Positions 27,714-51,875 of a DNA stretch of 64,000 nt are shown here, piece by piece. Position 1 is the first letter of the stretch; each line of letters starts with the position of its first letter. This DNA is from Lachnospiraceae bacterium (lineage in GTDB: Bacteria; Bacillota; Clostridia; Lachnospirales; Lachnospiraceae): positions 1,073 to 65,072 of the forward strand of contig CAVIJY010000002.1 of assembly GCA_963643215.1 (NCBI GenBank), written 5' to 3'. The position numbers were made by a program, and so were the translations under genes. A model generated the notes under the pieces. It was given only the letters and a program-made list of their open reading frames with translations. It was not told the DNA's origin and ran no database searches.

Positions 27714-27793
27714 CAGATATCTCCCGGCTGCAGACAATCAATCTCCCGCGGGCTCTTCAAAAGCCGGCGGGAGGCATATCCGATCCGCAGCAG

Positions 27794-31226: not shown

Positions 31227-31262
31227 CGCCCTTCTGTATCAAAAGCTCACATCCATGCGCTG

Positions 31263-31366: not shown

Positions 31367-31382
31367 CATCAGCCGCTCCGCC

Positions 31383-32273: not shown

Positions 32274-32286
32274 GCCTCATCCTCCG

Positions 32287-33153: not shown

Positions 33154-33159
33154 TTACTG

Positions 33160-34074: not shown

Positions 34075-34078
34075 GATA

Positions 34079-36118
34079 TCATTCCTCTGATTTACGGTTT
34101 GACGGACTGGCAAGCTGAGGCCTTGAATCCGTCTCTGACGATGTATCCGAGTTCTTATCACTGTCTTTTTTATCTGTTCCGTCCGTGGTTTTATCCGCGG
34201 GCTTAGTGCTGACATCGGCCTTCGGATCCGTGATTCCGTCTATCGTGAGATCGTTTATAAAATCCGTCTCGACATCTATGATACGGTTTACAATCATATC
34301 AGCCTGTGCATCATCGGCGAGTATCAGCGATGCATACTCCTGCCCCTCCTCGCCTGCGACTATATCGCTGTATATGATGTCTATTCTTTCTATCCTCGTA
34401 TCCTCATCAGCAGACATAAGCAGGATATAAGCGGCTATATCATCCTCTGTATATCCGTCTGCCAGCTTGCTGAGTCTGCCTCTCTCATCATATACCGCGC
34501 ATACCGTCATATCCTCGGCAACTGCGCAATACGAGGCCTTCCTCAGGAATCTCTGCGACAGCACTATGCCGACGGACACCGGTTCGTCAGAGGCTGCCGT
34601 CTCAGCCGCTGTTGTTTTCTCAGCTGCGGTTGTCTCCTCAGCTGCACTTGTCTCCGCAGACGCGGTTGTCTCTGCAGCTGCGGTTGTCTCTTCGGCTGCG
34701 GATGTTTCCTCAGCTACGGTTGTTTCCGCAGATACAGTTGTTTCTGCAGCTGTGGTTGTCTTCTCGGCTGCGCTTGTCTCCGCAGGCTTTGTCTCGGGTG
34801 TCTTTGTTATGATTCCGTCTGCGACATCATCGGCCTCAAACTCAAGACCGCTGCCGTCGCCCTTTGCAAATCTTATTCCGGCATCCTCCGGCAGCTCAAG
34901 CACCAGCTCTCCGGCTATCATATCGTCATCAAGCTTTGCCACCTTGAGACCCACAGTACCGTCCGCCATGGCACTCTCGAACACATTTCCGAGATACTCC
35001 TCCGCTGCTCCGAGCGTATCAGGCATGCCGGATATATATTTTGCCGATCCGTATATGTTTATCTGTGCATCATAGTATACGGGAGCGGCGCTCTGTCTGT
35101 ATTCCCTGATCTCCTCCGGGTCTATAAAAAGATAGCTGTCAAGATAGAGCATGGAGGCTCCTTCTGTGATATCTATGGCAGCATCCTCTCCGTCTGCACC
35201 ATCCTCGGCCATCTCGCAGGCTCTCTTAAAATCGGCCGTCCACACCGCCGCTGTCTCTGCATCTATTCCGTCTGTAATCTCGAGATCATAGCCGTCATTA
35301 CAGTATATAATCTCAGTATCGGAGGCTCCGGCCAGCTTCACCACCGCCGCGCCGTCATCGCATTCGTATTCTGCCAGCCATACATCATCTTCCGGCTCAT
35401 CATAAAAAGCAGCAGCAGGCTCCGTATATTCCAGCTCTGTCTCCATGCCGCGAACCGCAGCATAGCAGCCGTCATTGACGCTTACCATCACACTGTTTAT
35501 GCTCATATCTGTCTGGTCAAACCTGAGTATATAGTTTCTGCCGACCTCATCGATATAATAGCTGCAGGCCTCCAGTTTCTCTTCATCCAGATCTATGATA
35601 TATATGAGTTCTCCGTCATTTGCCACGACGGCTCTTTTCAGCTGATCAAGGCTTATCTCCCCGTCAGCTGCCGTCAGTGCAAGCGTATGCCCCTGCTCCT
35701 CGTATTCAGAGTCAAACGATATCCTGAGCTCTATATCCGGCTCTGACTTGCAGAAATATGTATTGATCGCTATGATCGTCTCCCGCTGCGCAGGGTTGAG
35801 CGTAAAGTCATGAAGATAGCTTTCTGTCCTGATTTTCTCGTCTTGAGCCTCGTATATCAGTCTGGCCGCATTCGACTTAAAGACATAGTTAAGAAGCAGC
35901 CTGTCGGCATCACCGTATTCTTCCTCTATCTGCCGTCCGAAGGCATCGAGAATCTCCTCGTTTACCGAGAAAAATGCCTTTCTCTCATCGCTTTCCTCTG
36001 ATGCCCATGTTCCCGGCGCAGCAGCACATATCATAAAAGCAGCAGCAAGAAGCATCGCAAGGCATCTCCTTGCGATGCGTCCGCATCTTATATATCTGTC
36101 TATGACAGATCGAAGCAT
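34079..36118 (-). CDS. Secreted acidic protein of unknown function with a conventional Sec signal; first gene of the R1 unit
   Basis: Signal ...AAAPGTWA/SEES. It is very D/E-rich, has an ETTAAE low-complexity segment and a K/D/S-rich tail. I recognise no family. Confidence 0.5.
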   Translation of the reverse strand: MLRSVIDRYIRCGRIARRCLAMLLAAAFMICAAAPGTWASEESDERKAFFSVNEEILDAFGRQIEEEYGDADRLLLNYVFKSNAARLIYEAQDEKIRTESYLHDFTLNPAQRETIIAINTYFCKSEPDIELRISFDSEYEEQGHTLALTAADGEISLDQLKRAVVANDGELIYIIDLDEEKLEACSYYIDEVGRNYILRFDQTDMSINSVMVSVNDGCYAAVRGMETELEYTEPAAAFYDEPEDDVWLAEYECDDGAAVVKLAGASDTEIIYCNDGYDLEITDGIDAETAAVWTADFKRACEMAEDGADGEDAAIDITEGASMLYLDSYLFIDPEEIREYRQSAAPVYYDAQINIYGSAKYISGMPDTLGAAEEYLGNVFESAMADGTVGLKVAKLDDDMIAGELVLELPEDAGIRFAKGDGSGLEFEADDVADGIITKTPETKPAETSAAEKTTTAAETTVSAETTVAEETSAAEETTAAAETTASAETSAAEETTAAEKTTAAETAASDEPVSVGIVLSQRFLRKASYCAVAEDMTVCAVYDERGRLSKLADGYTEDDIAAYILLMSADEDTRIERIDIIYSDIVAGEEGQEYASLILADDAQADMIVNRIIDVETDFINDLTIDGITDPKADVSTKPADKTTDGTDKKDSDKNSDTSSETDSRPQLASPSNRKSEE

Positions 36119-36160
36119 CTCCTATTTCCTTCCTGTCTGTATATCAGTATAACTCGCTCT

Positions 36161-36364
36161 GACTTTGGCTCATTGCTTCGCGTAACTGCGGAAAACTCGC
36201 CTTGCGGTTTTCCTCGTTATCGCGGCATTCACCAAGGTCCCGTGCAAGCACGTGACCGTCAAGAATCTCTCCCTTTGCCGTGGATATGCTTCGCGCATCC
36301 ACGGCTGCGTGAGCGCTTCTTGACTTCCCCGTATACGGGGACTTTGGCTCATTGCTTCGCGTAA
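36161..36364 (-). repeat. Intergenic repeat, family 2, copy b (two 25-nt direct repeats flanking a 154-nt core)
   Basis: GACTTTGGCTCATTGCTTCGCGTAA occurs at 36161-36185 and 36340-36364. The core shares CCGCGATAACGAGGAAAAC..GTTTTCC with copies a and c and has extra hairpins. Confidence 0.8.
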
Positions 36365-36475
36365 AAAAACCAGCTCACATGTAAATCTCTGTGACCTGGC
36401 AACTGGCTGGCTGCAATGCCGCAGCCCCTATAGCTTTGCGTCATCGGATCGCTCCGATTTTGCCTTCTTTTCAAT
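36363..36475 (-). promoter_or_regulatory. c-di-GMP-I (GEMM-I) riboswitch R1 with terminator
   Basis: Minus strand reads AGAAGGCAAAATCGGA-GCGA-TCCGATGACGCAAAGCTATAGGGGCTGC..GCAGCCAGCCAGTTGCC. A CCAGGTCACA..TGTGAGCTGG hairpin and T7 follow. Confidence 0.85.
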
Positions 36476-36521: not shown

Positions 36522-38828
36522 TCATCTCTCGCATACTCTGGCAAAGAGATATCCCAGGCTTCCCATCTCTTCCTTTGTGAGTATCCGATGATTTTTCTCC
36601 ATCTCCCGCCTGATGGCTACCATGATCTCCAAGAGTCCGATGGGCACACCCTGAGCAGCTGCCAGATAAGCAGCCGTGAGCGCCACATTTTTGATGATGG
36701 CTCCGGTGAATTTAAATATCCTTGCCAGCTCACGATAGTCAACCTCCGAGGCAACCGGCGCCTGCTTCGGGAACACACTGCTCCATATCTCATAGCGGAT
36801 CTGCTCATCAGGCTCCTTGAACAGGAGATAATATCTGAATCTTCTCAGGAACGCATTATCTATGGATGTCATGTTGTTTGTCGCAAGTATCGATATCCCG
36901 TCGAATTCCTCTATGCATTGCAGCAGCAAAGAGGACTCTATATTGGCAAAACGCTCATTGGCATCCTTTGCATCCATACGCTTGTTGAATATGGAATCGG
37001 CCTCGTCAAAGAAAAGCACGCTGTTGCTCTTTTTTGCCTGATCAAATATCCTTCTGATATTCTTCTCCGTCTCTCCGACATATTTGTCTATAAGCTGAGA
37101 AAGATCTATCTTGTAAAGCTCCATCCCGAGCTCATTGGCCACGACCTGCGCAGCCATGGTCTTTCCGGTTCCGGGAGGACCTGCAAAAAGCACGGTTACC
37201 CCTGAGCCGTACGGAACCTTGCTCTCGAAATTCCACTCCTGCATGACGATATGACGGTTTCTTACAGTATCGCACACATCCCTCAGCAGCGTCTTATCTC
37301 TGGGATCCATCTTGATATCATCCCATTTAAACGGCGACTCAACCTTCTGTGTATGATCCTTGAGCGGATGCCCCATGACCGCATAGCAGCTTTTATAAAG
37401 CATCCCTCGTGATACATCCTCATGCAGAAATGCCTGTCTTGCCGCCCGGTTTATCTGTCCCGGCGTCAGTGTGAAGCTGTTGGCCAGCTGCTGTATCTCT
37501 CCCTCGGAAAGAGCAAGGCTCCTGTCGCCGCTATAGCCTCGAAGATAGTATGTCCATATCCTCGCTCTTGTGACGGCATCCGGCATCTTCACTGCAAAAA
37601 GATATACACCCTCGATGTAGTCCGGCACTGTCTCCGCCTCAATCAGCATACATACCGGAACATTCACAGATCCGGCTTTTCCTGTCAGCCAGCTTATATA
37701 CAGCTTCTGCCGATCCGCAGAGTAGCCTCCCAGCCCGGATATGACCAGCATCCTGTCTGTCACTATACACTCGCGCACCGCATACAGTGTATGATCCATC
37801 AGCACAGAGATGTCTCCGGCTGCATTTGCCTCATTCAGACACTCTCCCGCATCGTACTCTATCGCACGCATACCGGTGTCTGCCAATGCTCCTGCCGCTA
37901 TAGTGTGCTTTCCCGCTCCGCGCGCTCCCCAGAGGACAATCGGAGCTGAGTATGACCTGAGACGGCGGGCGAGACTCTCCCTGTCATCCCTCATATAAGC
38001 ATACGGAGAATCCTGCGCGGAATCGTCCTCGGACGCCGCGCCGCTCAACATATGCATACCGTACAGCAGATTCAGAGAAGCCTGAGCCGCATCCGGTATA
38101 CGTCCATATGTAAGTCCTGTCGGAAATCCTGCCGCAGAAGCACTTGCCGCAAAGCCGTTGGCCTCATCCGTCATCAGCTCGTACAGCCGCATGTCAAGCT
38201 GCGGTGTCAAGTGGAATATATCCTCTGCTCCGTCGCACTCCGGGAAGAGATATCCGAGAGAATCAGCGACCTCACTCAGCATTCTGCTCACGCGGGCTCC
38301 GCCGTAAAGCCCGTCTCCGAACAGGAGATTTACCACATCATACAGACTTTTCGCCCCCACCATCGATGCATAGTCTCTGTCCAGATATACATGATAGTAG
38401 TAAATCAATGTCTCCGTCATCCAGTCCGGAAGCAACAGCCTTTCAAGCAGTATATTCAGCGCCGGGATCTTTCCTGCCGTCACGCTGACATCCCGGCGCG
38501 CGATGATCTGGTCGGCCCACAGCTGCGCGGTCTGACCCTCTGACAGCCCCCGCATGATCAGTCTTGTGCGCAGGTATTCAATTGCTCTCACACATCGTGA
38601 CAGCTCTGTTGATTCCGGTCCCGACAGCACAGTCTCTCCCACTGCAGCATCACTCGCTGTAGCATCGCGCGGCTCAAGCATCTGCAAACCACTCTTTTCC
38701 AGAAGGCTCTGCCGCTCCTGCATGATTTCAAGTATTCTCAGGTCAACGAAAACAGACAGCTCCTCGACATATTCAAAGCTGTCTGTATATGGTCTGTCTC
38801 CTGCAAATCGTACCAACGGATCATTCAT
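36522..38828 (-). CDS. Two-domain AAA+ ATPase (degenerate D1, canonical classic-clade D2)
   Basis: D1 is LWGARGAGKHT. D2 has GPPGTGKTMAAQVVANELG, Walker B VLFFDEADSIF and ILATNN..DNAFLRRF. Confidence 0.8.
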   Translation of the reverse strand: MNDPLVRFAGDRPYTDSFEYVEELSVFVDLRILEIMQERQSLLEKSGLQMLEPRDATASDAAVGETVLSGPESTELSRCVRAIEYLRTRLIMRGLSEGQTAQLWADQIIARRDVSVTAGKIPALNILLERLLLPDWMTETLIYYYHVYLDRDYASMVGAKSLYDVVNLLFGDGLYGGARVSRMLSEVADSLGYLFPECDGAEDIFHLTPQLDMRLYELMTDEANGFAASASAAGFPTGLTYGRIPDAAQASLNLLYGMHMLSGAASEDDSAQDSPYAYMRDDRESLARRLRSYSAPIVLWGARGAGKHTIAAGALADTGMRAIEYDAGECLNEANAAGDISVLMDHTLYAVRECIVTDRMLVISGLGGYSADRQKLYISWLTGKAGSVNVPVCMLIEAETVPDYIEGVYLFAVKMPDAVTRARIWTYYLRGYSGDRSLALSEGEIQQLANSFTLTPGQINRAARQAFLHEDVSRGMLYKSCYAVMGHPLKDHTQKVESPFKWDDIKMDPRDKTLLRDVCDTVRNRHIVMQEWNFESKVPYGSGVTVLFAGPPGTGKTMAAQVVANELGMELYKIDLSQLIDKYVGETEKNIRRIFDQAKKSNSVLFFDEADSIFNKRMDAKDANERFANIESSLLLQCIEEFDGISILATNNMTSIDNAFLRRFRYYLLFKEPDEQIRYEIWSSVFPKQAPVASEVDYRELARIFKFTGAIIKNVALTAAYLAAAQGVPIGLLEIMVAIRREMEKNHRILTKEEMGSLGYLFARVCER

Positions 38829-38997: not shown

Positions 38998-41900
38998 TCA
39001 GCTCGTCCCCGCGGGAATCTCTATCTTGGAATCGGATGCGATCTTCGTATCGTTGACCTTTACCTCGACATTCACATCGCTGCTCAGCTTAAAGCCGTCA
39101 AGTATGATTGCTTCGCTAGAGGATGTAACCGTGATCTCATCTCTGGATGCCACAGACTTCGGATCGGTATCTGATGCTTTCTCGTAGTTGTATGCGAACA
39201 GCGGCACTATGTCAACCGTCGTGTCTGTAGTCGTCTGATAACTGTAGGACACCACAAACTCATCCTCCAGCTTCGCTGTATATGCCGTACCCTCCGGAAT
39301 ATCTGAAAAGGCTTCGCCGGTATTCAGCGCTTGGATATTCCTGATAACCGTAGCCTGCGTCCAGTCATCATCTATGCCCCATACTCCGTCAGCAGGCTTC
39401 TCTACCTCATCGGTCTGAGTAATCGTGGTATCCGCTGTTTTGTTGTATTCCGTGATCGTACGGAAGAACCTTTCGGAGCTGTCCGTCGAAGCAGTCATCT
39501 GCGTGTCCGCGTTCATGACAGTTACATCCGCCGCCTTATATACACAGGCGGCACCGGCTACAGCGGCTCCGGATCCTGCTGCTTCAGACTCAAATGTGAC
39601 CGTGATTTTATCTGATGATGTCACCGCGGAAGCTGCCGCGCTGTTCTTAAATTCTAGCGCTACGGCAGCGTCCTTTACCGCCGCGAAGCCTACACCGTCG
39701 GGGCATCTGCCTGTGTCTGATGTCACTGTCTCCATAGTCTCTGTTCGTGTGATCTCCTGCATGCCGGTGTTCGGATTGGAGCAGATATCAAGATAGAACA
39801 GATAGGCCCCGATACCTGATGCCGAGCCAAGTGCGTACTCTCCCCTGTTGACAGGGATCTGAAAGTAATACACCGCAGACTGAATGAGATTCTCCGTAGC
39901 AGTGATCCATGCTGTATCAAATACAAGATTTGCATCAGTTACACATGCCGGAGCATCTGATGCAGGTGTATCATACTCGCCGCCGCTGTATGAAGAATAT
40001 GTCCCATCCGCATATTCATATACATAGCTGCCCGAATCCTTGTATATTCGACTTATCTCCTTGATATCTGTGATTTTGTTCTCATCATCCCTGTAAATAT
40101 GATGCAGCGAGAAGAAGCTTGTGTTATTGCCATAATATGTTCCTGCATAGAACGAGATATATCCCGCCTGATTGAGCATAAAGTCTATGCTGTTGCGCGG
40201 CATCTGATAATTGTCATAACTGATGCCGTTTATCCACGCTGTCGGCATCTCTGCCACATTGGCCTTACTGATAGTCGCCGGCATAAAGTGAAGCCCGTAG
40301 ATGGTTCCCGCATCGGCTTCAAACATATCTGCCAGCTCCTCCCGGGCCGCATCATATACCGTTTTGTTCAGCCCAAGCTCAGTCAGAGTCTTTTTGGTTA
40401 TGCCCGATACATCTGAACTTATATTTGTATTGTTCGCATTCGCACTGTCCGAGATGCGAAACTGTCCATCAGTAGTCTGTGTCAGAATCTCGAGCTGTCC
40501 GTCAGCATATGCGGATAATCCGTTAAGCGATGCCGTAAGCCTCCCGGCCAGGGAATATCCGGCAACACGTATATTTCCCAGAGGATTTGAACCGGCTTCC
40601 GATTTCTGCTCTGCTCCTCCGACAAAATATCCAGTATTTGCATATCCGTCCTCCGTGCTTTCAGTTCGCGTGCTGTATCCGCCGGAGGGATAAGAGCCTG
40701 TGACTGTCTCATTTACAGCAATCGGAAATATGGAATCGTAGGTGGCATAGACTGCGCTTGCGGATTCCGTGATTGTATATTGATAGGTTATCTTTTCATT
40801 CTTTGATGTCTGCGTGCATTCGTAGGCGCTTGTGTCTCCGTCGGCGACCTTGATTATCTGCACCTTTGGAGTGTTTCCCTTGGCATTACTTGTCGTGGAT
40901 TCACTTGTGTCTGTACTGACCTTCCAGATTCTGTACGATACAAAAGAGTTCAAATACCATGTGAAATTCAGATAATATGTTGTTCCGCCTGAGCTGTCCG
41001 GCTTTGTAGCCAGATAGTATATTGAAGGATCTGCAGCGTCGGCAGCCTGCATTTCCCATTGCGTTACCCCGCTGTTTTCAATTTTAAGAGTGCCTGCAGA
41101 GGTATCCACATTCAGATACTTTCTTTCATCATCCGCTGCAATTGACAAGTATCCATCATTGTCGAAATGCCACTGCGCTTTATAGTCAGTGTTTTTCGCG
41201 CCTTTTACAGAGCCGACATACGGAAGTGAGGCTTCGTTGCTTTGTAAATAGCTTTCGATTTTCCATGTATTATCGCAGGAATAGTCACTGTACAGATAGT
41301 GATAATTATTACGAAGATAATATGATTCCTGTATATTTACTACCTGCTCTGCCTGCTCTACCTTCCATTTGCCGTCTGAGGTGTCATAAAACAGATAATA
41401 TGTTCCGCTGTTGTAAACATAGCCTCCGGCTACTGAGGTGCGCGTCCATGCGCTGGCACTTGCATATGCCGTTTCAATCTTAAGCGACAGATCGCTGTCT
41501 ATAGTTAGAAAATATGTAGTGCTGCCCGACTTAGTGATCAGATAGCTGCTTCCCCCGGTGACATGATCATGACTCACATATGACCACAGCGTTGCATCGT
41601 CTTCGCTGTCTGCGGCTACTATACTTGTACCGCTGAGTGTGAGGTATTTACCGTTTTGCTGTATGGTAAATGTCTCGCAATTCTTTGTGGTGTATGTCGT
41701 CGTCCTGGTCATGGTTTCTGAACCTGTCGGCTGGGTGATATTGTCAGCTCCATGAAGAGCTGCATATGTGCCTGAAGAGTTGGATGAAAAGCTATAGGAA
41801 GCCCAATCATCGCTGAAATTTTTGAACGCAGCGTTCGAAACGGACACCTTTCCCGAATACTCAATCTCTCCGTCCAGAGAAAACGCTGCATTCGGGTTTG

Positions 41901-43005
41901 ATCTTGTATAGTTCGCGGTCACACCGGTATACACCGGAGCGTCTGATGTCTTGCCGCTGCCGTAGACATTCTTCAGTCTCTGAAACAGAGACTTCATGTC
42001 GATGGTTCCGCCGAATTCGCTGTCTGCCTCTCTTACCTCAAAATCCGCCGATTTGACGCACACGCTGTGCGCCACACCAACGATCTTGGAGGTGTCGCAA
42101 TATCCTACTGTGGTATAGTACGACAGCTTCTCTGTGGGTATCATATCATCAGCCGATGTGCCCACATCGACTCCCGCGGATGCTGCCGAGCCGTCTATGC
42201 TGCCGTTCACCAGTACATCTGCCATGCCTGCGCTGCCACCGACATAGCCCGCGGCCAGTCCGGCAAGACAGCGCTGTGTTTTGCCTACTACCGATATATT
42301 GTCTATCTTCACATTTTCTATCGATGCGATCACGCTGCTGCTTACAGCGCTCCCGCTGTACTCGCCGACCACTCCGAACAGTCCTATGATCTCGGCCTCT
42401 TCTCCCAGATCCGTCGCGCCGTCCTTGGCCAGCTCCTCCTTGACCTGCAGCGGCATCTCCGAATCCTTGCCCGATCCGGCCTCCATATCTGTTCCGTCAG
42501 CTCTGTTGCTTATCGTCAGATTGCTGATTGTATAGCCGTTGCCGTCAAAGCTGCCCACAAAGGGATACTCCTTTGTTCCTATGGGCGGGAGCACCCAGCC
42601 CGTCATATCAAGATCCGCCGAAAGATAGAAATAAAACGGCGGCTCATCGGAATCGTTAAAGTAACCCAGATACTGCAGCCATGCCAGATTGTAGAGCTGT
42701 TCAGGCGTCTTGATCTCGTATGCCGCCGGAGTATCAACAGCCTTGTGCTCCTCATCAGTATATGATGTGCCGTCAGCCTTTTTGCCGAATACAGGGGATC
42801 CGTCAGCATCATAACCTGTGACGATCTCATCCGGCTGTGATCCGTCTCCTGATTCGAAATATCTGGCCACATATGTTACCGATCCGGCCAGCTCTATATC
42901 CGCCTTGTGAATCTCGCCGTACCACGCAAAAGAGGCGCCGGTTATAGCAACCAGCGCCAGTATGATGCATATCTGTGAGCATATACGCCGCATCATGTAC
43001 TTCAT
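38998..43005 (-). CDS. Giant secreted protein (1335 aa) with SipW-type signal and GLUG/beta-helix-like N-terminal module; putative adhesin
   Basis: Signal ...ITGASFAWYGEI. FDGNGYTISNLTISN and IGLFGVVG/LAGLAAGYV motifs are present. The centre is rich in Y/S/T/G repeats. Confidence 0.7.
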   Translation of the reverse strand: MKYMMRRICSQICIILALVAITGASFAWYGEIHKADIELAGSVTYVARYFESGDGSQPDEIVTGYDADGSPVFGKKADGTSYTDEEHKAVDTPAAYEIKTPEQLYNLAWLQYLGYFNDSDEPPFYFYLSADLDMTGWVLPPIGTKEYPFVGSFDGNGYTISNLTISNRADGTDMEAGSGKDSEMPLQVKEELAKDGATDLGEEAEIIGLFGVVGEYSGSAVSSSVIASIENVKIDNISVVGKTQRCLAGLAAGYVGGSAGMADVLVNGSIDGSAASAGVDVGTSADDMIPTEKLSYYTTVGYCDTSKIVGVAHSVCVKSADFEVREADSEFGGTIDMKSLFQRLKNVYGSGKTSDAPVYTGVTANYTRSNPNAAFSLDGEIEYSGKVSVSNAAFKNFSDDWASYSFSSNSSGTYAALHGADNITQPTGSETMTRTTTYTTKNCETFTIQQNGKYLTLSGTSIVAADSEDDATLWSYVSHDHVTGGSSYLITKSGSTTYFLTIDSDLSLKIETAYASASAWTRTSVAGGYVYNSGTYYLFYDTSDGKWKVEQAEQVVNIQESYYLRNNYHYLYSDYSCDNTWKIESYLQSNEASLPYVGSVKGAKNTDYKAQWHFDNDGYLSIAADDERKYLNVDTSAGTLKIENSGVTQWEMQAADAADPSIYYLATKPDSSGGTTYYLNFTWYLNSFVSYRIWKVSTDTSESTTSNAKGNTPKVQIIKVADGDTSAYECTQTSKNEKITYQYTITESASAVYATYDSIFPIAVNETVTGSYPSGGYSTRTESTEDGYANTGYFVGGAEQKSEAGSNPLGNIRVAGYSLAGRLTASLNGLSAYADGQLEILTQTTDGQFRISDSANANNTNISSDVSGITKKTLTELGLNKTVYDAAREELADMFEADAGTIYGLHFMPATISKANVAEMPTAWINGISYDNYQMPRNSIDFMLNQAGYISFYAGTYYGNNTSFFSLHHIYRDDENKITDIKEISRIYKDSGSYVYEYADGTYSSYSGGEYDTPASDAPACVTDANLVFDTAWITATENLIQSAVYYFQIPVNRGEYALGSASGIGAYLFYLDICSNPNTGMQEITRTETMETVTSDTGRCPDGVGFAAVKDAAVALEFKNSAAASAVTSSDKITVTFESEAAGSGAAVAGAACVYKAADVTVMNADTQMTASTDSSERFFRTITEYNKTADTTITQTDEVEKPADGVWGIDDDWTQATVIRNIQALNTGEAFSDIPEGTAYTAKLEDEFVVSYSYQTTTDTTVDIVPLFAYNYEKASDTDPKSVASRDEITVTSSSEAIILDGFKLSSDVNVEVKVNDTKIASDSKIEIPAGTS

Positions 43006-43080
43006 GTTCCCGTATTCCCCTTTGCAGGCTCAGGCACTCCGCCCAGCACTGCATCGCTGTATACACAAACCTGTCCTGTA

Positions 43081-46000
43081 TCATGCGGCCGGAACCTCGA
43101 TGGAGGCTCCTTTGCTCAGCTCAGTATCGTTGATCGTCGCACTGTACGGACTTACTATCTCATCACCTCTGATAGTGATAGCCTTATCCGAGGCAGCTCT
43201 GATAGTATATTCCGACAGTTCGCTGCTCTTGTCAATAGGTTCAGCACCCATAGCCGGGTAATCCTCATCCTGTATCGATGATATTCCTCCATTGGTCAGA
43301 AGCGTCGGGTGAGATACTATGCTCACATTTGCGCCGTTTTCATCATAATAATGGTACCTGATGATCGTATCAGCGGCCGCAATATCGTGCCCGTCATCCT
43401 CGAAGTTCGTATCCTGCGTTCCTTCGTCGGCCTCCCAGTCGCTGTAGATATAGCGCTCTGCCGTCCTGGTCACAGCACCGGCATTATCCGTCGACTCCTT
43501 CGTAGTCGTCACAGTAAATGTCGTCTCCTTTGTGGTGCAGTTGTAGGTATAGACCGTAATCTTCTCCGTTTCATCCTTCGATGTTGCAGTCGCTGTCATA
43601 GTCAGCTCGTTGCCGTTTGAATCCTCCAGCACGATGCCGTCCCCGACAAATGCTCCTGTCCCTATACCCGTGCTGCTGACCGTAAGCACAGCCCTGTCGC
43701 CGCTCCTGCTGATAGAGGCGCTCGCTACCGAGCCTGCGGCCATGACCGCGCATGCCGAGTCTGAATCCGATGTATATCCGCTGCCCGCTGCCACAAGCTG
43801 TACTCCCTTTGGATACTCATATGTATCCCTTGTGACAGTCGTGATCTCTGTCAGCTCCTGCTTTCGCAGCTCCTGAGCATTGGTCGAAAGGTCAAGATAC
43901 ATCAGATACCCTCCGCTGCTGCCGCTCACGCTGCCCAGTGCGTACTCGCCCGCATTTGCCGGTATCTCGAAGTAAAAGACACGATTACTGCCGTAGGAGA
44001 TAGCGTCATTATATCCGATCCATTCCATATCAAATACCTTGTCCACTCTCCCGGCAGAGGACGAGTAGGTGCCGTCGCTGTACAGATACACATATACGCC
44101 TGCCTCAGCTGTCGAGTATACCTGGGCTATCTCCTTGATATCCGTGATCTCCTGTGTCGCCTCATCTCTGATTATCTGATGAAGCGTAAAAAAGCTCTTA
44201 TTTCCGGAATAATATTCTCCGGCAAAGAAGTTTATATACCCGGCCTCCCGAAGATTGAAGTCTATGCAATGGCGCGGAACCTTATAGTTTGCATACTCAT
44301 TGCGATCTATGACCGCCTTCGGTATCACAGCCGCATCATCCTTGGCGATGCTCGCGTCCATGAAATGAAGTCCGTATACATACGACTGTCCGCTCAGTGT
44401 CTTTAAAAACGCTGTCTTTGAGTCATCATACTTGACAAAAGTATGGCTTGTCGGAATCGTCTGTATCCCGCTGTCATTTATCGTATAAACGGAGGTAAAG
44501 GCTCCGCTGTTCTTATTGTATGAGGCGGATATATTGCTTATTGTGTAACCGGATACACGGATGTCTCCTGAGCTTCTCGGCCAATAACCGCTGCTCCTGT
44601 AGCTGGATCCCGATACGATATATCCGGTATTGATATCCTTGACAGCATATCCGTTCGCCTGATTTTCAGCCGTCAGCGGCAGGTAGGTGTCCGGTACGGT
44701 TGCAGTGGCGCTCGCTGTGGTTGTGCTCTGCGTAGTGGTCGGCTTTTGAGCAGCTGTTGATATCAGTGACAGTGTCTCCGCCGGCATGTTTGCCGCCTTG
44801 AATGTAAGCACAGCCGCTTCCTCCGCAGGAGCATATGTCGGCTCGATCTCAAAGCTTGCGTCACCTGCAGCAGAGTTCAGACGTCGATTGCTGCTGTATG
44901 ACAGCCCGCTGCTGCCTACGCTCAGAACATAGTAGTAGGTTCTCCCCCAGCCCCCTCCTGAACTTGCAGAGATGTAGTAGTAGGTGGCTCCTGAGTATGT
45001 ATATGCGCTCCATATGCTGTTGGATGTGCTCTGAGAGCCGGTGAGGCTCACATAATAATTTCCCCCGTATGCGTTACTTGCCAGATAAAGATAATACTCC
45101 GTTCCGTTCACATCCGTGCTGATATAGTATCCGCCTGACGCCGCTGTGACACTCCACCATGCGGCGCTGTCAATATCTGTCGTGGTGGAAAAACTGCGAT
45201 TCGATGATACCGTCACATATGTTCCGTATCCGTTTGATATCACATATCCGCTTTTCCCTGCTGCCAGCACCCAGCTCCCGGACGCGTCGTCATATGCTAT
45301 ATAGTACCTTGTTGTAACTCCTCCGGTTGTATAGTCACTGTACAGCCTTCCGTCATCATCTCTCGTCCATGCCGTAGCCGTGGCTGAGGTATAGTCACCT
45401 GATGCGATAAGCGTCCCGCCGTCATTGTACAGATAATAGTCTGCTCCGCCTGCAGATGTGCTGATCACATACTTTCCGTCAGTATTTTCATATACATACC
45501 ACTTCGAGGCGGTTTCGGAATCCGCTGATGCTGTCACCGAGTCTCCCGTCCCGGAGTAGACCATATAGTGCTCTCCGTCCGTGATATAGGAGCGCTTTGC
45601 TGCGGATATCAGCGTCCAGCATTGTGCAGTTTCATCATACTTCAGATAGTAGTCGGTCTCTCCGTCCGTAGTATATATACGATTGCTTTCCCGAATCCAT
45701 GTCACTGCCGAGGTGCTGTCCGCAGTTATAGTCAGCTCTGTGCCGGACCGGCTCAGATAATACACTTCATCGTCTATATATGTCTCCAGCGTGCCGGAAT
45801 CCGCGCCGGAAAAAACCCACTTTGTCGCCGTATCCTCACTGTCCCCGGTTTCAATCCCCGTCACAGTGGCGTTCAGATAGTGTGTCCCGTCAGAGGCGAT
45901 CACTGCGCCCACCTCCTCATGCGAATAGGTGGTATTGATGTATGTTTTGCTGACGGTAAAGTCCGCTGCACCGATCAGATAATTATACATCGTGCTCCAG

Positions 46001-47214
46001 CCGCTTGAGTAATGTGCGGCAAGCGTCGCCGAGCCGGCCTTTTCATCCGTATAATTTCGTATGTACTGCGATATGATCTGAGGATTGCTGTATGCAGTCA
46101 CGCTGGTTCCGTCCGCCTGCGTGACCGTGGTCTCCGTCGCATAGTATGTGGGATTCGTGCCGTTGCTCTCCATATATTCTATACGGTTGTACAGGCTGAG
46201 CATATCAATGGAGCCGCCCCATGCGTCCCCGCTTGCCTGCGCATCCGCTCTGGAGATCATAAGACCCGGCTTCGACATCTCAATCGTCGCTACATCAAGT
46301 GTGTCCTTGTACTCGTCCTCGCAGTAGCCCACCAGCATATAGTCGGACAGCTTGTCTGTCATGCTTTCCGAATCAAGCGCCTCTGCTCCGGTCTCGTTGC
46401 TGATGGTTCCGTCGCTTACCGCAATCTCCGCAAGAGTCCCGTTTACATAGCCTGCGGCCAGACCCGCAAGAGACCTTTGCGTTCTGGTTTCTATGACTAT
46501 CCCGTCGATACGCAGGTTCTTTATCTCTGATATGGCGCCCGAATATGTGGCACCTCCGCTATACTCGCCGACCACTCCGAACAGTCCTATGATCTCGGCC
46601 TCTTCTCCGAGATCTGTCGCGCCGTCCTTGGCCAGCTCCTCCTTGACCTGCAGCGGCATCTCCGAATCCTTGCCCGATCCGGCCTCCATATCTGTTCCGT
46701 CAGCTCTGTTGCTTATCGTCAGATTGCTGATTGTATAGCCGTTGCCGTCAAAGCTGCCAAGAAAGGGATATTCCTTTGTTCCTATGGGCGGAAGCACCCA
46801 GCCCGTCATATTAAGATCGGCCGAAAGATAAAAATAGAACGGCTGCTCATTAAAATACCCCAGATACTGCAGCCATGCCAGATTGTAGAGCTGCTCGGGC
46901 GTCTTGATCTCGTATGCCGCCGCAGTGTCGACAGCCTTGTGCTCCTCATCCGTATATGATGTGCCGTCTGGCTTTTTGCCGAATACAGGGGATCCGTCCG
47001 CATCATAGCCTGTGACGATCTCATCCGGCTGTGATCCGTCGCCCGACTCGAAGTATCTGGCCACATAGGTTACCGATCCGGCCAGATCCACACCGGCCCT
47101 GCGGATCTCTCCGTACCAGGCCAAAGAAGCGCCGGTCGTCACGGCCAGCGCCATCAGCAGGGATATCCCTGTATATATTCGCAATATCTTCTGTCGCATC
47201 CTTTTCTGCATCAT
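43081..47214 (-). CDS. Giant secreted protein (1377 aa), paralogue of 38998-43005
   Basis: The start was trimmed to MMQKRMRQK at 47214 because the upstream ORF extension runs through repeat family 1. Signal ...TTGASLAWYGEI. About 200 N-terminal aa are nearly identical to the neighbour. Confidence 0.7.
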   Translation of the reverse strand: MMQKRMRQKILRIYTGISLLMALAVTTGASLAWYGEIRRAGVDLAGSVTYVARYFESGDGSQPDEIVTGYDADGSPVFGKKPDGTSYTDEEHKAVDTAAAYEIKTPEQLYNLAWLQYLGYFNEQPFYFYLSADLNMTGWVLPPIGTKEYPFLGSFDGNGYTISNLTISNRADGTDMEAGSGKDSEMPLQVKEELAKDGATDLGEEAEIIGLFGVVGEYSGGATYSGAISEIKNLRIDGIVIETRTQRSLAGLAAGYVNGTLAEIAVSDGTISNETGAEALDSESMTDKLSDYMLVGYCEDEYKDTLDVATIEMSKPGLMISRADAQASGDAWGGSIDMLSLYNRIEYMESNGTNPTYYATETTVTQADGTSVTAYSNPQIISQYIRNYTDEKAGSATLAAHYSSGWSTMYNYLIGAADFTVSKTYINTTYSHEEVGAVIASDGTHYLNATVTGIETGDSEDTATKWVFSGADSGTLETYIDDEVYYLSRSGTELTITADSTSAVTWIRESNRIYTTDGETDYYLKYDETAQCWTLISAAKRSYITDGEHYMVYSGTGDSVTASADSETASKWYVYENTDGKYVISTSAGGADYYLYNDGGTLIASGDYTSATATAWTRDDDGRLYSDYTTGGVTTRYYIAYDDASGSWVLAAGKSGYVISNGYGTYVTVSSNRSFSTTTDIDSAAWWSVTAASGGYYISTDVNGTEYYLYLASNAYGGNYYVSLTGSQSTSNSIWSAYTYSGATYYYISASSGGGWGRTYYYVLSVGSSGLSYSSNRRLNSAAGDASFEIEPTYAPAEEAAVLTFKAANMPAETLSLISTAAQKPTTTQSTTTASATATVPDTYLPLTAENQANGYAVKDINTGYIVSGSSYRSSGYWPRSSGDIRVSGYTISNISASYNKNSGAFTSVYTINDSGIQTIPTSHTFVKYDDSKTAFLKTLSGQSYVYGLHFMDASIAKDDAAVIPKAVIDRNEYANYKVPRHCIDFNLREAGYINFFAGEYYSGNKSFFTLHQIIRDEATQEITDIKEIAQVYSTAEAGVYVYLYSDGTYSSSAGRVDKVFDMEWIGYNDAISYGSNRVFYFEIPANAGEYALGSVSGSSGGYLMYLDLSTNAQELRKQELTEITTVTRDTYEYPKGVQLVAAGSGYTSDSDSACAVMAAGSVASASISRSGDRAVLTVSSTGIGTGAFVGDGIVLEDSNGNELTMTATATSKDETEKITVYTYNCTTKETTFTVTTTKESTDNAGAVTRTAERYIYSDWEADEGTQDTNFEDDGHDIAAADTIIRYHYYDENGANVSIVSHPTLLTNGGISSIQDEDYPAMGAEPIDKSSELSEYTIRAASDKAITIRGDEIVSPYSATINDTELSKGASIEVPAA

Positions 47215-47367: not shown

Positions 47368-48288
47368 TCACTCAACCGTGACAGATGTGATGTCGGCATT
47401 AAAGTTCTCGGTTACACGCTGGTTCAGTCGTCCCGACAGAGACTGATAATTGCTGTTCAGATAAACTTCAACCAGAGCCTGTGAGTAGTCAAACTTTATG
47501 AAGAATACCGCTGTAGTGATGCCGTTGTCATATGTGGTGGTATCATAGCCCGAGAAGTTAAATGTCAGGCTGTTTGACTTGGTTGCATCTCCAAGCTCTG
47601 TATATCTTCCGTGCGCCTCAGGAATGGCCGAAAAAAAGCTTTTTAGCTCCGGCGCGCCCTCGCCGCTCCATGTCAGCCCCTTGCAGCCCTTATATACCGT
47701 ATCCGCGTCTGTCTCAGTCTCCAGTGAGGGTATCTGCACAGCCTGAGCCGCAACTACATTAGATAGATTCAGAGCGATATTTCCCTGAGTCCAATGCTTG
47801 TCAGCATCTGTTTTCGTGTATCTCAGTCCCTCATCATCTGTGGCATTCTTCAGATCTCCGGTGTTTTCCCGGTTCAGCGTGACTGTGATATCACCCTTGT
47901 CGGACACCTTCTGACCGGCTATGGTCAGGCGCATGTATACGGCTGTATCCTCGTTCCTTCCGACTACGGCATCATATCCGTTCATGGAGACCTTATCTGG
48001 AGAGCTGATCACAGCTCCGGTCGCTGATATCTTTCCGTCACTGCCGGTTGTCAGCTCACCGTAGTAAAGATTGCACTCGGTGACAGCCAGCTGTGTATCA
48101 TCCGATACTATGGCCGTCTCTCCTCTCTGAGCGATGCGGCCGAAGACCTGCCATGCTCCCGTCAGCGCGGCTGCCATGATCACCACCGACAGCAGCGCCA
48201 GAACAGCCAGTATTGCAGTAACGCCGCCCTTTCCTCCGGGCAGAGAAAAGGGCGGACGCTTTTTATCATTATCCTGTGAACTCTTCAT
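47368..48288 (-). CDS. Secreted/membrane protein with weaker SipW-like signal (LTGAWQVFG)
   Basis: ATG at 48288, 6 nt after GAGGAG. It has a TM/signal but no W-x-EG-x-D C-terminal motif. Confidence 0.5.
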   Translation of the reverse strand: MKSSQDNDKKRPPFSLPGGKGGVTAILAVLALLSVVIMAAALTGAWQVFGRIAQRGETAIVSDDTQLAVTECNLYYGELTTGSDGKISATGAVISSPDKVSMNGYDAVVGRNEDTAVYMRLTIAGQKVSDKGDITVTLNRENTGDLKNATDDEGLRYTKTDADKHWTQGNIALNLSNVVAAQAVQIPSLETETDADTVYKGCKGLTWSGEGAPELKSFFSAIPEAHGRYTELGDATKSNSLTFNFSGYDTTTYDNGITTAVFFIKFDYSQALVEVYLNSNYQSLSGRLNQRVTENFNADITSVTVE

Positions 48289-48299
48289 AATGGCTCCTC

Positions 48300-49406
48300 T
48301 CAATCACCGCCGGTTGTCGTCGGAACCACTCCAACATAGCTGACCTTCACGCTCAAGCCGATGTCATCACTGTCAGACATGCCGACCATAGCCGCGCTGT
48401 CGGTACCCTCCAGCCATACATACACCTCGACATCCACTCCTGCTGTAGTCGCGGTGCAGAGCTTTGTGGTGCCTGCCTCATATATATGCTCTGATCCCGA
48501 TGACTTTTTCCCCTCATAGTCGGCCAATCCCGCGTCTCCGACTGTTATCGCAGGACTCTCAAGCTTCCATGTCGCCGAAGAGCCTGCTGTGGTTTCCTCT
48601 ACTATCGCCTTGTAGTTTGTATCTGCATCTCCGTCCGTATTACCGCTTTCGGTCTCCGCTACCGGAGCATATATGAGAAGCACATCCCCGCTTTTAATTC
48701 CTACACGAACCGCCTTTTTAAAGCTGTCCTTGCCGCTTGAGGTGCCGCTGGTATTTAAGGTTACCGTGATCGGAGCGTCCGGATTCAGATATATATCAAG
48801 ATCGCCGCTTTCGGTATACAGATTGTCGCATGTATAGTAGTACGCGGTTCTTTGCTGATTCTCAAAGGCATTCGTATAAACGCCTGATACCCCGGTTGAA
48901 TCAAGCTCGATCCCGCCGCCTGTAGTTATCTTCGTGAAGTCATCCGCCAGCGGCGCGGATATGTCCACCGTGGTGGTTGTGGTTGATCCCGAAGCGTCAA
49001 TAGTATACCCGCCCAGTCTGAAGCTGCTCGCATAGAACCAGTTCGTAAGATCATTGGTCGATATGGGATACAAGGCCGCTTCGATATTTCGTGTCACGCT
49101 TTCTGCATACTTCTTATCCTCATCCGCCTGAGCCTTCTCGCTTGACGGTCTGATATACAGGGACGGCGACGGAGTATCCGAGGTGATAGAGGAGTTGGCG
49201 CTTTCCACCTTTTTGTTGCTGGCAAACCACGCACGCGAAAGAAACGCACCCGTGGACATCCCTGCCACAAGCACGCTCACCATGATGAGCATTATCTGCT
49301 GGTGCATGCGTCTGCGCAACTGCGCGACAGACGGCACGGACTGCCCGTCCCGGACTGCCTCCTGTTCATTATCATATATGCGGTTTTTATCCCTGTTAAA
49401 CAGCAT
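48300..49406 (-). CDS. TasA/camelysin-like secreted protein with SipW-type signal; first gene of the R2 unit
   Basis: Start MLFNRDKN at 49406, after GAGGAA. Signal ...GAFLSRAWFASN. The C-terminus is VYVWLEGTDSAAMVG...LSVKVSYVG. In-frame upstream ATGs inside repeat family 2 cannot be excluded. Confidence 0.6.
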   Translation of the reverse strand: MLFNRDKNRIYDNEQEAVRDGQSVPSVAQLRRRMHQQIMLIMVSVLVAGMSTGAFLSRAWFASNKKVESANSSITSDTPSPSLYIRPSSEKAQADEDKKYAESVTRNIEAALYPISTNDLTNWFYASSFRLGGYTIDASGSTTTTTVDISAPLADDFTKITTGGGIELDSTGVSGVYTNAFENQQRTAYYYTCDNLYTESGDLDIYLNPDAPITVTLNTSGTSSGKDSFKKAVRVGIKSGDVLLIYAPVAETESGNTDGDADTNYKAIVEETTAGSSATWKLESPAITVGDAGLADYEGKKSSGSEHIYEAGTTKLCTATTAGVDVEVYVWLEGTDSAAMVGMSDSDDIGLSVKVSYVGVVPTTTGGD

Positions 49407-49426
49407 AAAATGATTCCTCAAGCTCT

Positions 49427-49544
49427 GACCTTGGCTCATTGCTTCGCGTAACTGCGGAAAACACGCTTTGCGAGTTTTCCTCGTTATCGCGGCGTTCATC
49501 AATGTCCTGAGCAAGCTCGGACCTTGATTCATTGCTTCGCGTAA
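49427..49544 (-). repeat. Intergenic repeat, family 2, copy c (two 25-nt direct repeats flanking a 68-nt core)
   Basis: GACCTTGGCTCATTGCTTCGCGTAA at 49427-49451 and GACCTTGATTCATTGCTTCGCGTAA at 49520-49544. The core contains the hairpin GGAAAACTCGCAAAGCGTGTTTTCC. Confidence 0.8.
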
Positions 49545-49650
49545 AAAAAATCAGCCGCTGCAAATATATATTATCTGCAACTGGCTGACTTATTCAAGTC
49601 CCTTTAGCTTTGCGTCACCGCTTCACAACGGCTTTGCCCCTCTATTTGTG
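49543..49650 (-). promoter_or_regulatory. c-di-GMP-I (GEMM-I) riboswitch R2 with terminator
   Basis: Minus strand reads GAGGGGCAAAGCCGTT-GTGA-AGCGGTGACGCAAAGCTAAAGGGACTT..AAGTCAGCCAGTTGC. The terminator is TCAGCCAGTTGCAGAT..ATTTGCAGCGGCTGA plus T8, and its 5' arm overlaps the aptamer 3' strand. Confidence 0.88.
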
Positions 49651-49686: not shown

Positions 49687-49699
49687 TTATGTTTTGTTT

Positions 49700-50002
49700 T
49701 TACATCACAGCAGCTCTGTACGGTTCTATTTCCGCAATATCTTTTGCAATACTCGTTTTCAGTGCTCTTATATCAATATCATTTTGCATATCCAGAAAAT
49801 ATCGATCCGATACACCGAAGAATTTAGCCAGTCTCAAGGATGTGTCGGGGGTAATTCTCCTACCGCTGTTCAGGATAGCCTGTATTCTGGATACGGGAAC
49901 ATGAATGCCCTGAGCCAACTTATAGGCCGAAATATTCATCGGCTCCATGAACTCTTCTTTGAGGATTTCACCCATCGCGGGCGCTTTAATATACTCAGTC
50001 AT
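49700..50002 (-). CDS. higA: HigA-family antitoxin (XRE HTH)
   Basis: 100 aa. ISAYKLAQGIHVPVSRIQAILNGRRITPDTSLRLAKFFG is typical of HigA. It lies downstream of higB. Confidence 0.85.
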   Translation of the reverse strand: MTEYIKAPAMGEILKEEFMEPMNISAYKLAQGIHVPVSRIQAILNSGRRITPDTSLRLAKFFGVSDRYFLDMQNDIDIRALKTSIAKDIAEIEPYRAAVM

Positions 50003-50044
50003 GCTTCTCCTCCCCTCCGTTTATCGCAGCATGCCTATGCTCCG

Positions 50045-50329
50045 CTAATGATAATCAACGATTTCGACATGATAGAACTCGTTTCGTCCTTCTATCGAAA
50101 AGCAAATACGATACTGGTCATTGATTCGAATGCTGTATTGTCCTTCCCTGTCGCCATGGAGAGCCTCCAGGCGATTTGCGGGAGGAACTTTCAGATCCTC
50201 CAAGCATCCTGCATTGTCTATCATGATCAACTTTCGCAGCGCCACCCGCTGAATATCATGTGGGAGCTTCTTTGAAAAAATCTGCTGATAGATTTTCTGC
50301 GTCTCCTTGTCATTGAAGCTCTTTATCAT
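50045..50329 (-). CDS. higB: HigB-family (RelE/ParE superfamily) toxin
   Basis: 94 aa. MIKSF.DKETQKIY...LEALHGDREGQYSIRINDQYRICF matches plasmid-maintenance killer HigB. Confidence 0.85.
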   Translation of the reverse strand: MIKSFNDKETQKIYQQIFSKKLPHDIQRVALRKLIMIDNAGCLEDLKVPPANRLEALHGDREGQYSIRINDQYRICFSIEGRNEFYHVEIVDYH

Positions 50330-50511
50330 GCAGCTATATTATACCCGTTTCGCGTGTATTTTCAATGGTGTGTCGCGCAGAATTTTGCATGGAATAAATG
50401 TGTTTCTATCTCATTATTCGTTGTAAAAAATGTGGTTATGCAGCGAAATTTCGTCGCAATTTTTGTGATTATATATTATACTGTGCCTATATCATAAACG
50501 GAGGTGCCCAT

Positions 50512-51810: not shown

Positions 51811-51875
51811 CATGAGAATGTTTTCAAAAGATGCACTTTGATTCTGTGAGATCGCAAAAACTGTGAGATCACAAA

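Follow-up and report, generated by a model that had tools for sequence, protein, structure and literature searches.

The tapA-sipW-tasA operon of Bacillus subtilis encodes TasA, which forms fibres by donor-strand exchange, and TapA, the nucleator (PMC9674648, PMC10151520). The sipW-bsaA system of Clostridium perfringens is described as a SipW-dependent extracellular polymer of small secreted subunits (PMC7395162; bioRxiv 10.1101/2024.11.04.621531). The DNA analyzed here, referred to as the window, is a stretch of 64,000 nucleotides (nt) from a Lachnospiraceae bacterium (assembly GCA_963643215.1, contig CAVIJY010000002.1, positions 1,073 to 65,072). It carries a locus of ~32 kb with two tandem genes, A and B, that encode giant predicted exported proteins and are accompanied by genes for small secreted proteins and a SipW-like signal peptidase. 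The subject of this report is a tract near the 5′ ends of A and B that is nearly identical in the two genes as a result of gene conversion.

The closest known systems are tapA-sipW-tasA and sipW-bsaA, and the likeness is in export logic and subunit multiplicity; membership of the same family is not supported by the sequence comparisons. As in tapA-sipW-tasA, the gene for an endoplasmic reticulum/archaeal-type signal peptidase lies beside the genes of its presumed substrates, there are several secreted paralogs, and a G/S-T-[FWY]-A-[FWA]-F-like motif closes the signal. In addition, the N-terminal segment, corresponding to the strand that TasA and TapA donate, is flexible, and a role in biofilm or surface structure is likewise predicted. 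Unlike the Bacillus system, the locus shows no sequence match to TasA/camelysin models and a weak fold match; it extends over ~32 kb and includes giants of 1300+ amino acids (aa), an AAA_5 ATPase with a DUF2357 protein, a PilZ-domain protein and cyclic di-GMP (c-di-GMP) riboswitches. The likeness to sipW-bsaA is one of description (clostridial, SipW-dependent, small secreted subunits), and neither giant lectin-like members nor control by riboswitches were found reported for it in the accessible parts of those sources.

Two further groups of systems are relevant. In babA/babB of Helicobacter pylori and pilE/pilS of Neisseria, nearby paralogs exchange sequence non-reciprocally, which yields mosaic surface proteins, and conversion mainly diversifies the exposed part; in A and B, on the contrary, it homogenises a constant N-terminal (N) module, and the exposed part stays divergent. 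In Clostridioides difficile, c-di-GMP riboswitches control sortase-anchored adhesins and type IV pilins. Here also, in a Clostridia-type organism, operons for surface proteins are immediately preceded by c-di-GMP aptamers, but the giants are without LPXTG and presumably follow a SipW-type route.

A near-identical tract in genes A and B

The two genes and their segments, all on the minus strand, are as follows.

43081-47214, minus: gene B, upstream paralog, giant predicted exported protein, 1377 aa from ATG
47119-47214, minus: predicted signal peptide of B, codons 1-32, cleavage predicted between ...TGASLA and WYGE by alignment with A
46555-47088, minus: homogenised (gene-converted) tract in B, codons ~43-220
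44815-45897, minus: variable core of B, residues ~440-800, with YY[LI]...W repeats
43765-44670, minus: conserved C-proximal domain of B, residues ~849-1150
38998-43005, minus: gene A, downstream paralog, giant predicted exported protein, 1335 aa
42925-43005, minus: predicted signal peptide of A, codons 1-27, cleavage predicted between ...TGASFA and WYGE
42352-42894, minus: homogenised (gene-converted) tract in A, codons ~38-218, comprising the flexible N-terminal strand and the first N sub-domain, including a GLUG-type unit
41956-42858, minus: conserved N domain of A, residues ~50-350
40726-41718, minus: variable core of A, residues ~430-760, with beta-trefoil-like modules
39676-40650, minus: conserved C-proximal beta-sandwich domain of A, residues ~786-1110
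38998-39675, minus: variable tail of A, residues 1111-1335, without LPXTG motif or membrane anchor

Co-oriented open reading frames (ORFs) fill positions 38998-47214, and that of gene B extends up to a TTG at 47304. Gene A starts 75 nt past the stop codon of gene B, and a scan for promoters and terminators, otherwise uninformative, did not reveal a convincing terminator between the two. Gene order is the same on contig L001 of a sister strain, where proteins P0001 and P0002 are the orthologs of A and B, respectively, each 96% identical to its counterpart.

An initial annotation of this DNA, made from the sequence alone, had described a near-identical N-terminal region in the two proteins, near-identical DNA with a single small indel, and a sudden loss of identity thereafter. 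All three are recovered by alignment. A MAFFT alignment of the proteins is near-identical from AGSVTYVARYF to GLFGVVGEYSG and then collapses; the tract is ~540-600 nt long, with a protein identity of 93%. The DNA aligns in blastn with 91.5% identity over 590 nt and resolves into direct repeats at 42353-42647 and 46556-46850 (96%) and at 42653-42952 and 46847-47146 (88%). The indel is of 9 nt and gives DSDEPP in A and EQP in B. No third copy of the tract was detected in the window by blastn.

The 3′ edge is sharp and lies right after GEYSG, at codon 218 of A. In bins of 30 codons the tract has an nt identity of 0.91-0.98, its last full bin reaching 0.98; the boundary bin drops to 0.69, the next bins to 0.60 and 0.57, and those beyond to 0.35-0.5. 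The alignable DNA stops here, and thus the tract stops just after the family-wide GxFGVVG motif; a dip in the confidence of the structure model at residues 219-222 of A coincides with this end. The 5′ edge is softer, at ~codon 38, about ten codons past the predicted signal cleavage site. The signal peptides further upstream are only ~40% identical between A and B, and since they have diverged, the homogenised patch is internal.

Synonymous (dS) and nonsynonymous (dN) divergence were calculated by the Nei-Gojobori method on the codon alignment of A and B. The signal and linker display a dS of 0.69 and a dN of 0.375, and codons 40-218 of the tract a dS of 0.25 and a dN of 0.012. In the rest of the N domain the values are 1.5 and 0.65, in the conserved C domain 2.2 and 0.42, and in the core and tail dS is saturated, with a dN of ~1.0-1.1. 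Divergence along the two genes is thus not uniform, dS being low in the tract only, where it is 6-10x lower than elsewhere in A and B. With a dS of 0.25 in the tract and 1.5 to saturated downstream, selection at the protein level alone cannot explain the tract; the dN/dS of 0.05 within it shows in addition that the encoded module is under strong constraint. A and B are old paralogs, and their synonymous sites beyond the tract are saturated. Their cores are <25% identical and their C-proximal domains ~50-60% identical in the best-conserved part, and the tails of ~230 aa are not alignable.

The strain comparison comprised the window strain, the sister strain, a third strain (L085) and ~20 protein variants, about ten per gene, from other assemblies. 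Sister-strain orthologs of A and B show a dS of 0.04-0.2 over the whole of each gene; thus the low-dS patch is internal and specific to the comparison of paralogs. Different sub-tracts are homogenised in different strains. In the 5′ part of the tract the paralog dS is 0.317 in the window strain vs 0.107 in the sister strain, and in the 3′ part it is 0.212 vs 0.394. Private substitutions in the 5′ part number 11 in the window lineage vs 2 in the sister lineage, and in the 3′ part 2 vs 15, an asymmetry between the two parts with p = 1.1e-4 by Fisher's exact test.

Several polymorphisms are common to both paralogs: KK[A/S/P]DG, DT[P/A/Q]AAY, the DSDEPP/DQP/EQP indel, PF[V/L]G, LT[I/V]SN and EEL[AK/DR/TK]DG. 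At the last of these sites, the ELAKDG state is displayed by the window strain only, in both of its genes, among the ~20 protein variants; elsewhere A has DR (TK in the third strain) and B has TK. In the third strain there is no difference between A and B over ~533 nt; the 3′ edge falls at the same place, and A-type and B-type states alternate as a mosaic. This identity is taken as supporting evidence only. P0004, the closest relative of B from outside the species, is 78.7% identical in the tract to A and 79.5% to B; outside the tract, A and P0004 are only ~36-38% identical. P0003, the closest full-length relative of A, is 65% identical to it in the tract. By these identities the tract of A is of B type.

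The initial annotation had suggested gene conversion or cassette exchange, and the low dS of the tract, the strain-specific sub-tracts, the B-type tract in A and the shared polymorphisms bear this out. Together the sequence comparisons argue solidly for repeated, patchy, bidirectional gene conversion that keeps codons ~38-218 of A and B near-identical.

Family and domain structure of the giant proteins

A search of 5.8 billion proteins yielded 372 relatives of A, of 800-2300 aa. All of them are without Pfam domains and are called "hypothetical protein" in their sources. Where a source is named, it is one of Lachnospiraceae, Acetatifactor, Oscillibacter, Ruminococcus and other Clostridia, to which a genome scan adds Ruminococcus albus KH2T6 and AR67, R. 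flavefaciens, Erysipelotrichaceae, metagenome-assembled genomes of Bacilli/Acholeplasmatales, and Christensenella. At E <= 1e-10 the isolated N domain has matches in 927 clusters (formed at 50% identity), where in nearly all cases it occupies residues ~50-330. A and B are members of an unannotated family of gut and rumen Firmicutes; no description of the family or of this type of locus was found in the searchable literature. Scans against Pfam and NCBIfam, run with A and B whole and in separate segments, yielded no usable match, and phmmer searches with A and with sp385, one of the small secreted proteins of the locus, had no matches among PDB sequences.

Homolog coverage along A outlines the architecture: conservation is high in the N domain (~25-350) and in the C-proximal domain (~786-1110), and the middle and the tail are variable. 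Between the signal and the N domain lies a flexible segment of ~20 residues. The N domain is covered by ~110 of the 120 homologs and the C-proximal domain by 100-115. It had been proposed initially that the C-terminal ~350 aa of A and B are homologous. The homology stands, and its position is to be corrected, as the conserved part is an internal domain (A ~786-1110, B ~849-1150) followed by the tail that cannot be aligned.

The fold assignments rest on an AlphaFold2 model of residues 1-1200 of A, built from a 64-sequence alignment, with a mean predicted local distance difference test score (pLDDT) of 75. The model has an N-terminal helix (2-30), a disordered stretch (23-47), an N domain with pLDDT mostly 80-92 and dips at 174-181 and 219-222, a beta-rich middle, and a very confident beta-sandwich at 790-1080 (pLDDT about 90). 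Foldseek with the whole model gave named folds for the middle only, and the N and C-proximal domains were without a named match. The core of A matches hisactophilin (probability 1.0, target-normalised template modelling score TMt 0.62, root mean square deviation 3.9) and Symfoil (TMt 0.65), as well as the IL-1 family and fascin, and FGF and ricin-B-like proteins in BFVD; trefoil-containing binding regions of botulinum neurotoxin (BoNT) and NTNHA are also matched, with template modelling (TM) scores < 0.1. A family profile matches the trefoil lectin SeviL with E = 1.3e-3. The core repeats noted initially are present, [YF]Y[LIV]...W units recurring in B with periods of ~39 and ~114-115 aa. By these matches and periods the variable cores, with three lobes of ~40 aa, are predicted beta-trefoil arrays of the lectin-type fold. 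The earlier idea that they are diversifying binding regions is thereby made plausible, with sugar binding a prediction.

Like ricin-B-type lectins, SeviL and the binding domains of the botulinum complex, the cores show the trefoil fold and the ~40 aa triple periodicity. They differ in having no Pfam ricin-type match, and in that the arrays are set between two family-specific conserved domains.

A GLUG-like module had also been suggested for the N-terminal region. The Pfam Glug model matches neither A nor B, and with the isolated N domain there was no match up to E = 10. However, a 45 aa segment, A125-170, finds 7-15 homologous units in each of P0242 (11 Glug stretches), P0243 and P0308 (Glug plus M26_N), with per-unit E of 1e-9 to 1e-15 in P0242. 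The unit, Y.L..D[IL]DMTG....PIG....PF.G.FDGNG..I.NLTI, is homologous to that of the GLUG/M26 (IgA1-protease-type) giants (PF07581, PF05342). Unlike these, A and B have a single N-terminal unit and no array, do not match the Glug hidden Markov model and have no peptidase domain. "GLUG-type unit" is a fair name for the segment, and the label "GLUG protein" exceeds the evidence.

The combination of a constant N terminus with a variable remainder is found elsewhere in the family. Many pairs of proteins from different assemblies have N termini that are 95-99% identical and remainders that are 35-55% identical; at least one of these pairs is allelic. In another species, two alleles of one locus (L002 8836-10974 and L082 91-2232) are 97.9% identical over 2143 nt, which span an upstream gene of 253 aa and the first ~325 codons of the giant; beyond this point the giants, of 2084 and 1257 aa, are unrelated. 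A large serine recombinase gene is situated directly downstream of the giant in L082. Further proteins, of >3300 and >3600 aa and cut by the locus ends, are encoded at L003 18275-25028 and L084 1-5967, beside three small genes. It was also considered whether a near-identical N terminus is a general trait of tandem paralogs; this was rejected, as the tandem pairs in three other genomes (L009, L069, L070) are 39-52% identical in the N domain.

Export signals, small subunits and the surrounding locus

All listed genes of the locus are on the minus strand. They are given here in order of transcription, with genes B and A falling between sp311 and the 768 aa ATPase.

55459-57300, minus: HD-domain protein (HD_5)
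54786-55466, minus: PilZ-domain protein (PilZ E = 2.3e-10)
53481-54752, minus: p423, membrane-anchored relative of the small subunits, with a C-terminal ...VIWMEGDDPEC motif also present in sp288
53253-53330, minus: predicted c-di-GMP-I riboswitch upstream of sp385 (RF01051, 59 bits)
51931-53088, minus: sp385, candidate major small subunit
49573-49648, minus: predicted c-di-GMP-I riboswitch heading sp410-sp311-B-A(-AAA768) (RF01051, 56.2 bits)
48300-49532, minus: sp410, secreted, with ...SRAWFASN signal motif and C-terminal VYVWLEGTD motif
47368-48303, minus: sp311, small secreted protein whose gene immediately precedes B, and a possible partner of the giants
36522-38828, minus: 768 aa AAA ATPase with a C-terminal CDC48/IteA-like AAA domain, the next gene after A
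36395-36474, minus: predicted c-di-GMP-I riboswitch upstream of p679 and the small-subunit/peptidase genes (RF01051, 62.1 bits)
34079-36118, minus: p679, 679 aa acidic Thr/Ala/Glu-rich secreted protein
30426-34215, minus: four small secreted paralogs sp266, sp296, sp288 and sp351, with mutual phmmer matches
29597-30400, minus: archaeal-type (SipW-like) signal peptidase I (TIGR02228, 104.3 bits, cutoff 51.85)
27867-29600, minus: TM577, membrane-anchored AAA_5-type ATPase (AAA_5 18.9 bits; Midasin AAA E = 6e-4)
25353-27737, minus: p794, DUF2357 N domain and ~450 aa coiled coil (DUF2357 E = 1.7e-12)
24690-25286, minus: possible second S26 signal peptidase (Pfam Peptidase_S26 E = 2.4e-4, 21.5 bits, just below the cutoff of 22.9)

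Both giants carry a predicted TasA-like signal, in which cleavage falls between A and W-Y/F; at the level of the motif this fits a SipW substrate. W28 is invariant in 64 homologs. The initial annotation regarded a TasA-type signal on proteins of >1300 aa as unusual; within the family it is not, since AW[FYLIV] occurs near the N terminus in 115 of 120 homologs, though no description of such a signal on proteins of this size was found in the literature searched. The SipW-signal model TIGR04088 has no match in A or B at E <= 0.01, and LPXTG near the C terminus occurs in 0 of 120 homologs. An archaeal-type signal peptidase I, the presumed cognate enzyme, is encoded in the same locus as A and B; against the model of Bacillus SipW it scores 99.9 bits, below the cutoff of 190.

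Small secreted paralogs in the locus number seven (sp410, sp311, sp385, sp266, sp296, sp288 and sp351), and four of them (sp266, sp296, sp288, sp351) display the pattern TYAWF...PvST.D..W...VYiWlEG.D.dC. By hhalign the giants and the small subunits have only the first ~50 residues in common (probability 79%, E = 1.6e-5), which cover the signal, AW[FY] and the ~20 residues that follow. The 1229 homologs of sp385 are all unnamed. Its AlphaFold2 model (pLDDT 87.6) has a signal helix, a disordered segment (22-40) and a beta-sandwich, and its fold matches are weak and enriched in subunits of strand-exchange fibres: FimA, the TasA fibre 8aur, Ena, CanA and EcpA.

The three aptamers lie on the coding strand upstream of operons and score above the gathering threshold of Rfam RF01051 (35 bits), and are thus putative c-di-GMP-I riboswitches with a predicted response to the ligand. 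Aptamers of this class are also present in 4 of 12 other loci scanned (L001, L037, L046 and L065, with up to five copies); none was detected in six other homologous loci scanned. Downstream of two of the aptamers in the window, a leader segment of ~100 nt is repeated (49422-49523 and 36156-36257, 89% identical). The repeat overlaps the annotated 5′ end of sp410, and thus the true start of this gene is probably downstream of 49532.

Co-occurrence was counted in 81 homologous loci, and because many of these end at contig ends the counts are lower bounds. S26 peptidases travel with the giants in at least 32 loci (often as two copies), p423 in at least 26, sp385-like proteins and the AAA_5 ATPase in at least 24 each, and the DUF2357 protein in at least 23. 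A co-directional ORF ends <700 nt upstream of the giant in 56 of the 59 loci with enough upstream sequence; 45 of these 56 ORFs have a W-motif signal, and nearly all of the 45 are of 240-330 aa. The 768 aa ATPase and p679 have homologs in only 2-3 of the 81 loci and thus look lineage-specific.

TM577 has a Walker A motif, GISGTGKTS, and a Walker B motif, VLDEMN, both read in the sequence. Together TM577 and p794 resemble an McrB/McrC-type couple without the nuclease. Their reading as a restriction system was rejected, since both co-occur with the peptidases and giants across taxa.

Other features of the window were noted. Positions 49688-51863, with sp385 on one side and the aptamer that heads the operon of the giants on the other, are an insertion of ~2.2 kb relative to the sister strain, which has 196 nt there; the insertion has plus-strand ORFs, including a DUF4143/AAA_14 ATPase (50398-51810), a low GC content (0.447) and a reversed GC skew. 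Upstream of the HD-domain and PilZ genes, 57346-59118 (minus) encodes a 590 aa secreted protein with choline-binding/glucan-binding repeats, which may be a surface component. A Clostridiales-1 small RNA (115 bits, 14795-14985) and a thiamine pyrophosphate riboswitch (57 bits, 15625-15756), both minus, are unrelated to A and B and fit a Clostridia-type host.

Explanations for the constant N module and their significance

The explanation that we hold, with a slight lean in its favour, combines N modules homogenised by conversion, SipW-type export, docking to a shared partner, lectin arrays and c-di-GMP control. A and B would be exported by Sec and cut by the peptidase of the locus after A27 and A32, respectively. 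Their common N-terminal strand and first N sub-domain would be recognised by one shared partner, most likely a fibre or surface scaffold of the small subunits, perhaps by strand complementation as in TasA/TapA. The differing trefoil arrays of A and B would bind different glycans, and c-di-GMP would control production by switching the locus on. Conversion would keep both paralogs fitted to the shared partner, leaving the rest free to diverge or be swapped. A docking function of the N module had been proposed initially; docking onto a fibre is a step that we infer only, and together with the lectin function it should be read as a reasoned hypothesis.

A number of observations weigh against this explanation. 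The filament, the cleavage and the binding are all predictions. The match of sp385 to the TasA fibre 8aur is weak in Foldseek (E = 0.03, probability 0.30, TM 0.18-0.28), and TasA/camelysin models of Pfam and NCBIfam match neither the small subunits nor A and B. A profile of the small subunits against PDB returned noise and no TasA entry, hmmscan of 40 members against NCBIfam gave noise, and TIGR04088 matches just 1 of 40 small subunits, with E = 0.039. The beta-trefoil matches are structurally clear but have modest E-values. In the third strain the B copy begins at a contig end, and its full identity with A may be inflated by repeat collapse. Because tandem paralogs in the three other genomes are so much less alike (39-52%), the family does not require identical N modules, a shared partner can do without identity, and the homogenisation might simply follow, as a neutral effect, from sequence homology. 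As regards conversion itself, among informative sites in the window and sister strains, 17 are ORTHO vs 1 CONCERTED; most still group orthologs, and conversion is thus patchy and episodic, not continuous.

The low identity of those tandem pairs and the excess of ortholog-grouping sites speak for an alternative that dispenses with a shared docking partner and with any functional need for identical N modules, namely a one-off chimera, with the 5′ segment of B copied into A and later exchanges due to DNA similarity alone, or conversion as a neutral by-product. The end of the tract at the end of homology, as the mechanics of recombination alone predict, is in keeping with it. We nevertheless consider it unlikely: sub-tracts have been homogenised independently in each strain, polymorphisms are common to the paralogs and one strain-specific state is found in both genes, the tract is under strong constraint as judged from its dN/dS, and alleles of another species repeat the constant-N/variable-rest arrangement. 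Purifying selection on an essential module, if very strong, might by itself produce near-identity, and indeed no part of the family is as conserved as the N domain, in which many residues are invariant. This is refuted by dS, which is several-fold higher in the equally conserved C domain and in the rest of the N domain than in the tract, and distant homologs are 45-65% identical over the same residues; we regard the idea as highly improbable. An assembly artefact, i.e., two diverged copies merged or mixed up during metagenomic assembly, deserves mention since the window and its relatives come from metagenome assemblies and the contig end in the third strain falls exactly at the repeat. It is given almost no credence, as both copies are resolved in each of two independent assemblies, which have differences of their own but the indel in common, and about ten further protein variants per gene show the same structure.

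A different function is conceivable for the same architecture. The giants might be polymorphic secreted effectors, in which a constant N domain serves trafficking and the variable parts are toxin-like or enzyme payloads, as in LXG, Rhs, CdiA or components of the botulinum complex. A constant N and variable C part within and between strains is what such effectors would show, NTNHA and BoNT binding domains are among the best whole-model fold matches, and the variable tails are without assigned function. However, those matches have very low TM scores and are accounted for by the trefoil modules. No toxin, nuclease or peptidase domain was found in A or B in the Pfam and NCBIfam scans, and neither gene is followed by a small immunity-like gene, the next gene after A being that of the 768 aa ATPase. 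The small secreted paralogs, the c-di-GMP riboswitches and PilZ point instead to surface structures, and an effector role appears distinctly unlikely.

Docking of the giants through a constant N module may be part of something larger. It is conceivable, though we hold this idea only tentatively and think it rather doubtful, that the locus represents an unrecognised and widespread Gram-positive surface-filament or matrix machinery. In it, archaeal-type signal peptidases and the membrane-anchored AAA_5 (McrB/MoxR-like) ATPase with its DUF2357 partner would assemble subunits that are not detectably TasA, giant lectin arrays would plug in via the constant N module, variable parts would be exchanged behind it both within a strain and from strain to strain, and the whole would be switched by c-di-GMP riboswitches. 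The AAA_5 ATPase/DUF2357 pair hints that assembly or release may use energy; we know of no energy-using step of this kind in TasA-type systems.

Hundreds of versions of these giants exist in Clostridia of gut and rumen, in Erysipelotrichaceae and in related Bacilli. If they are glycan-binding tips or components of a c-di-GMP-controlled, SipW-processed surface structure, they would represent a major uncharted route by which commensal Firmicutes attach to mucus, to plant fibre or to each other. The constant N module, which conversion keeps uniform and behind which variable parts are swapped, offers a way to catalogue specificities from strain to strain. Conversion is a familiar process among paralogous adhesin genes; here it preserves the constant module and does not diversify the exposed one, and the A/B pair is a testable example of concerted evolution preserving what would be an assembly interface.

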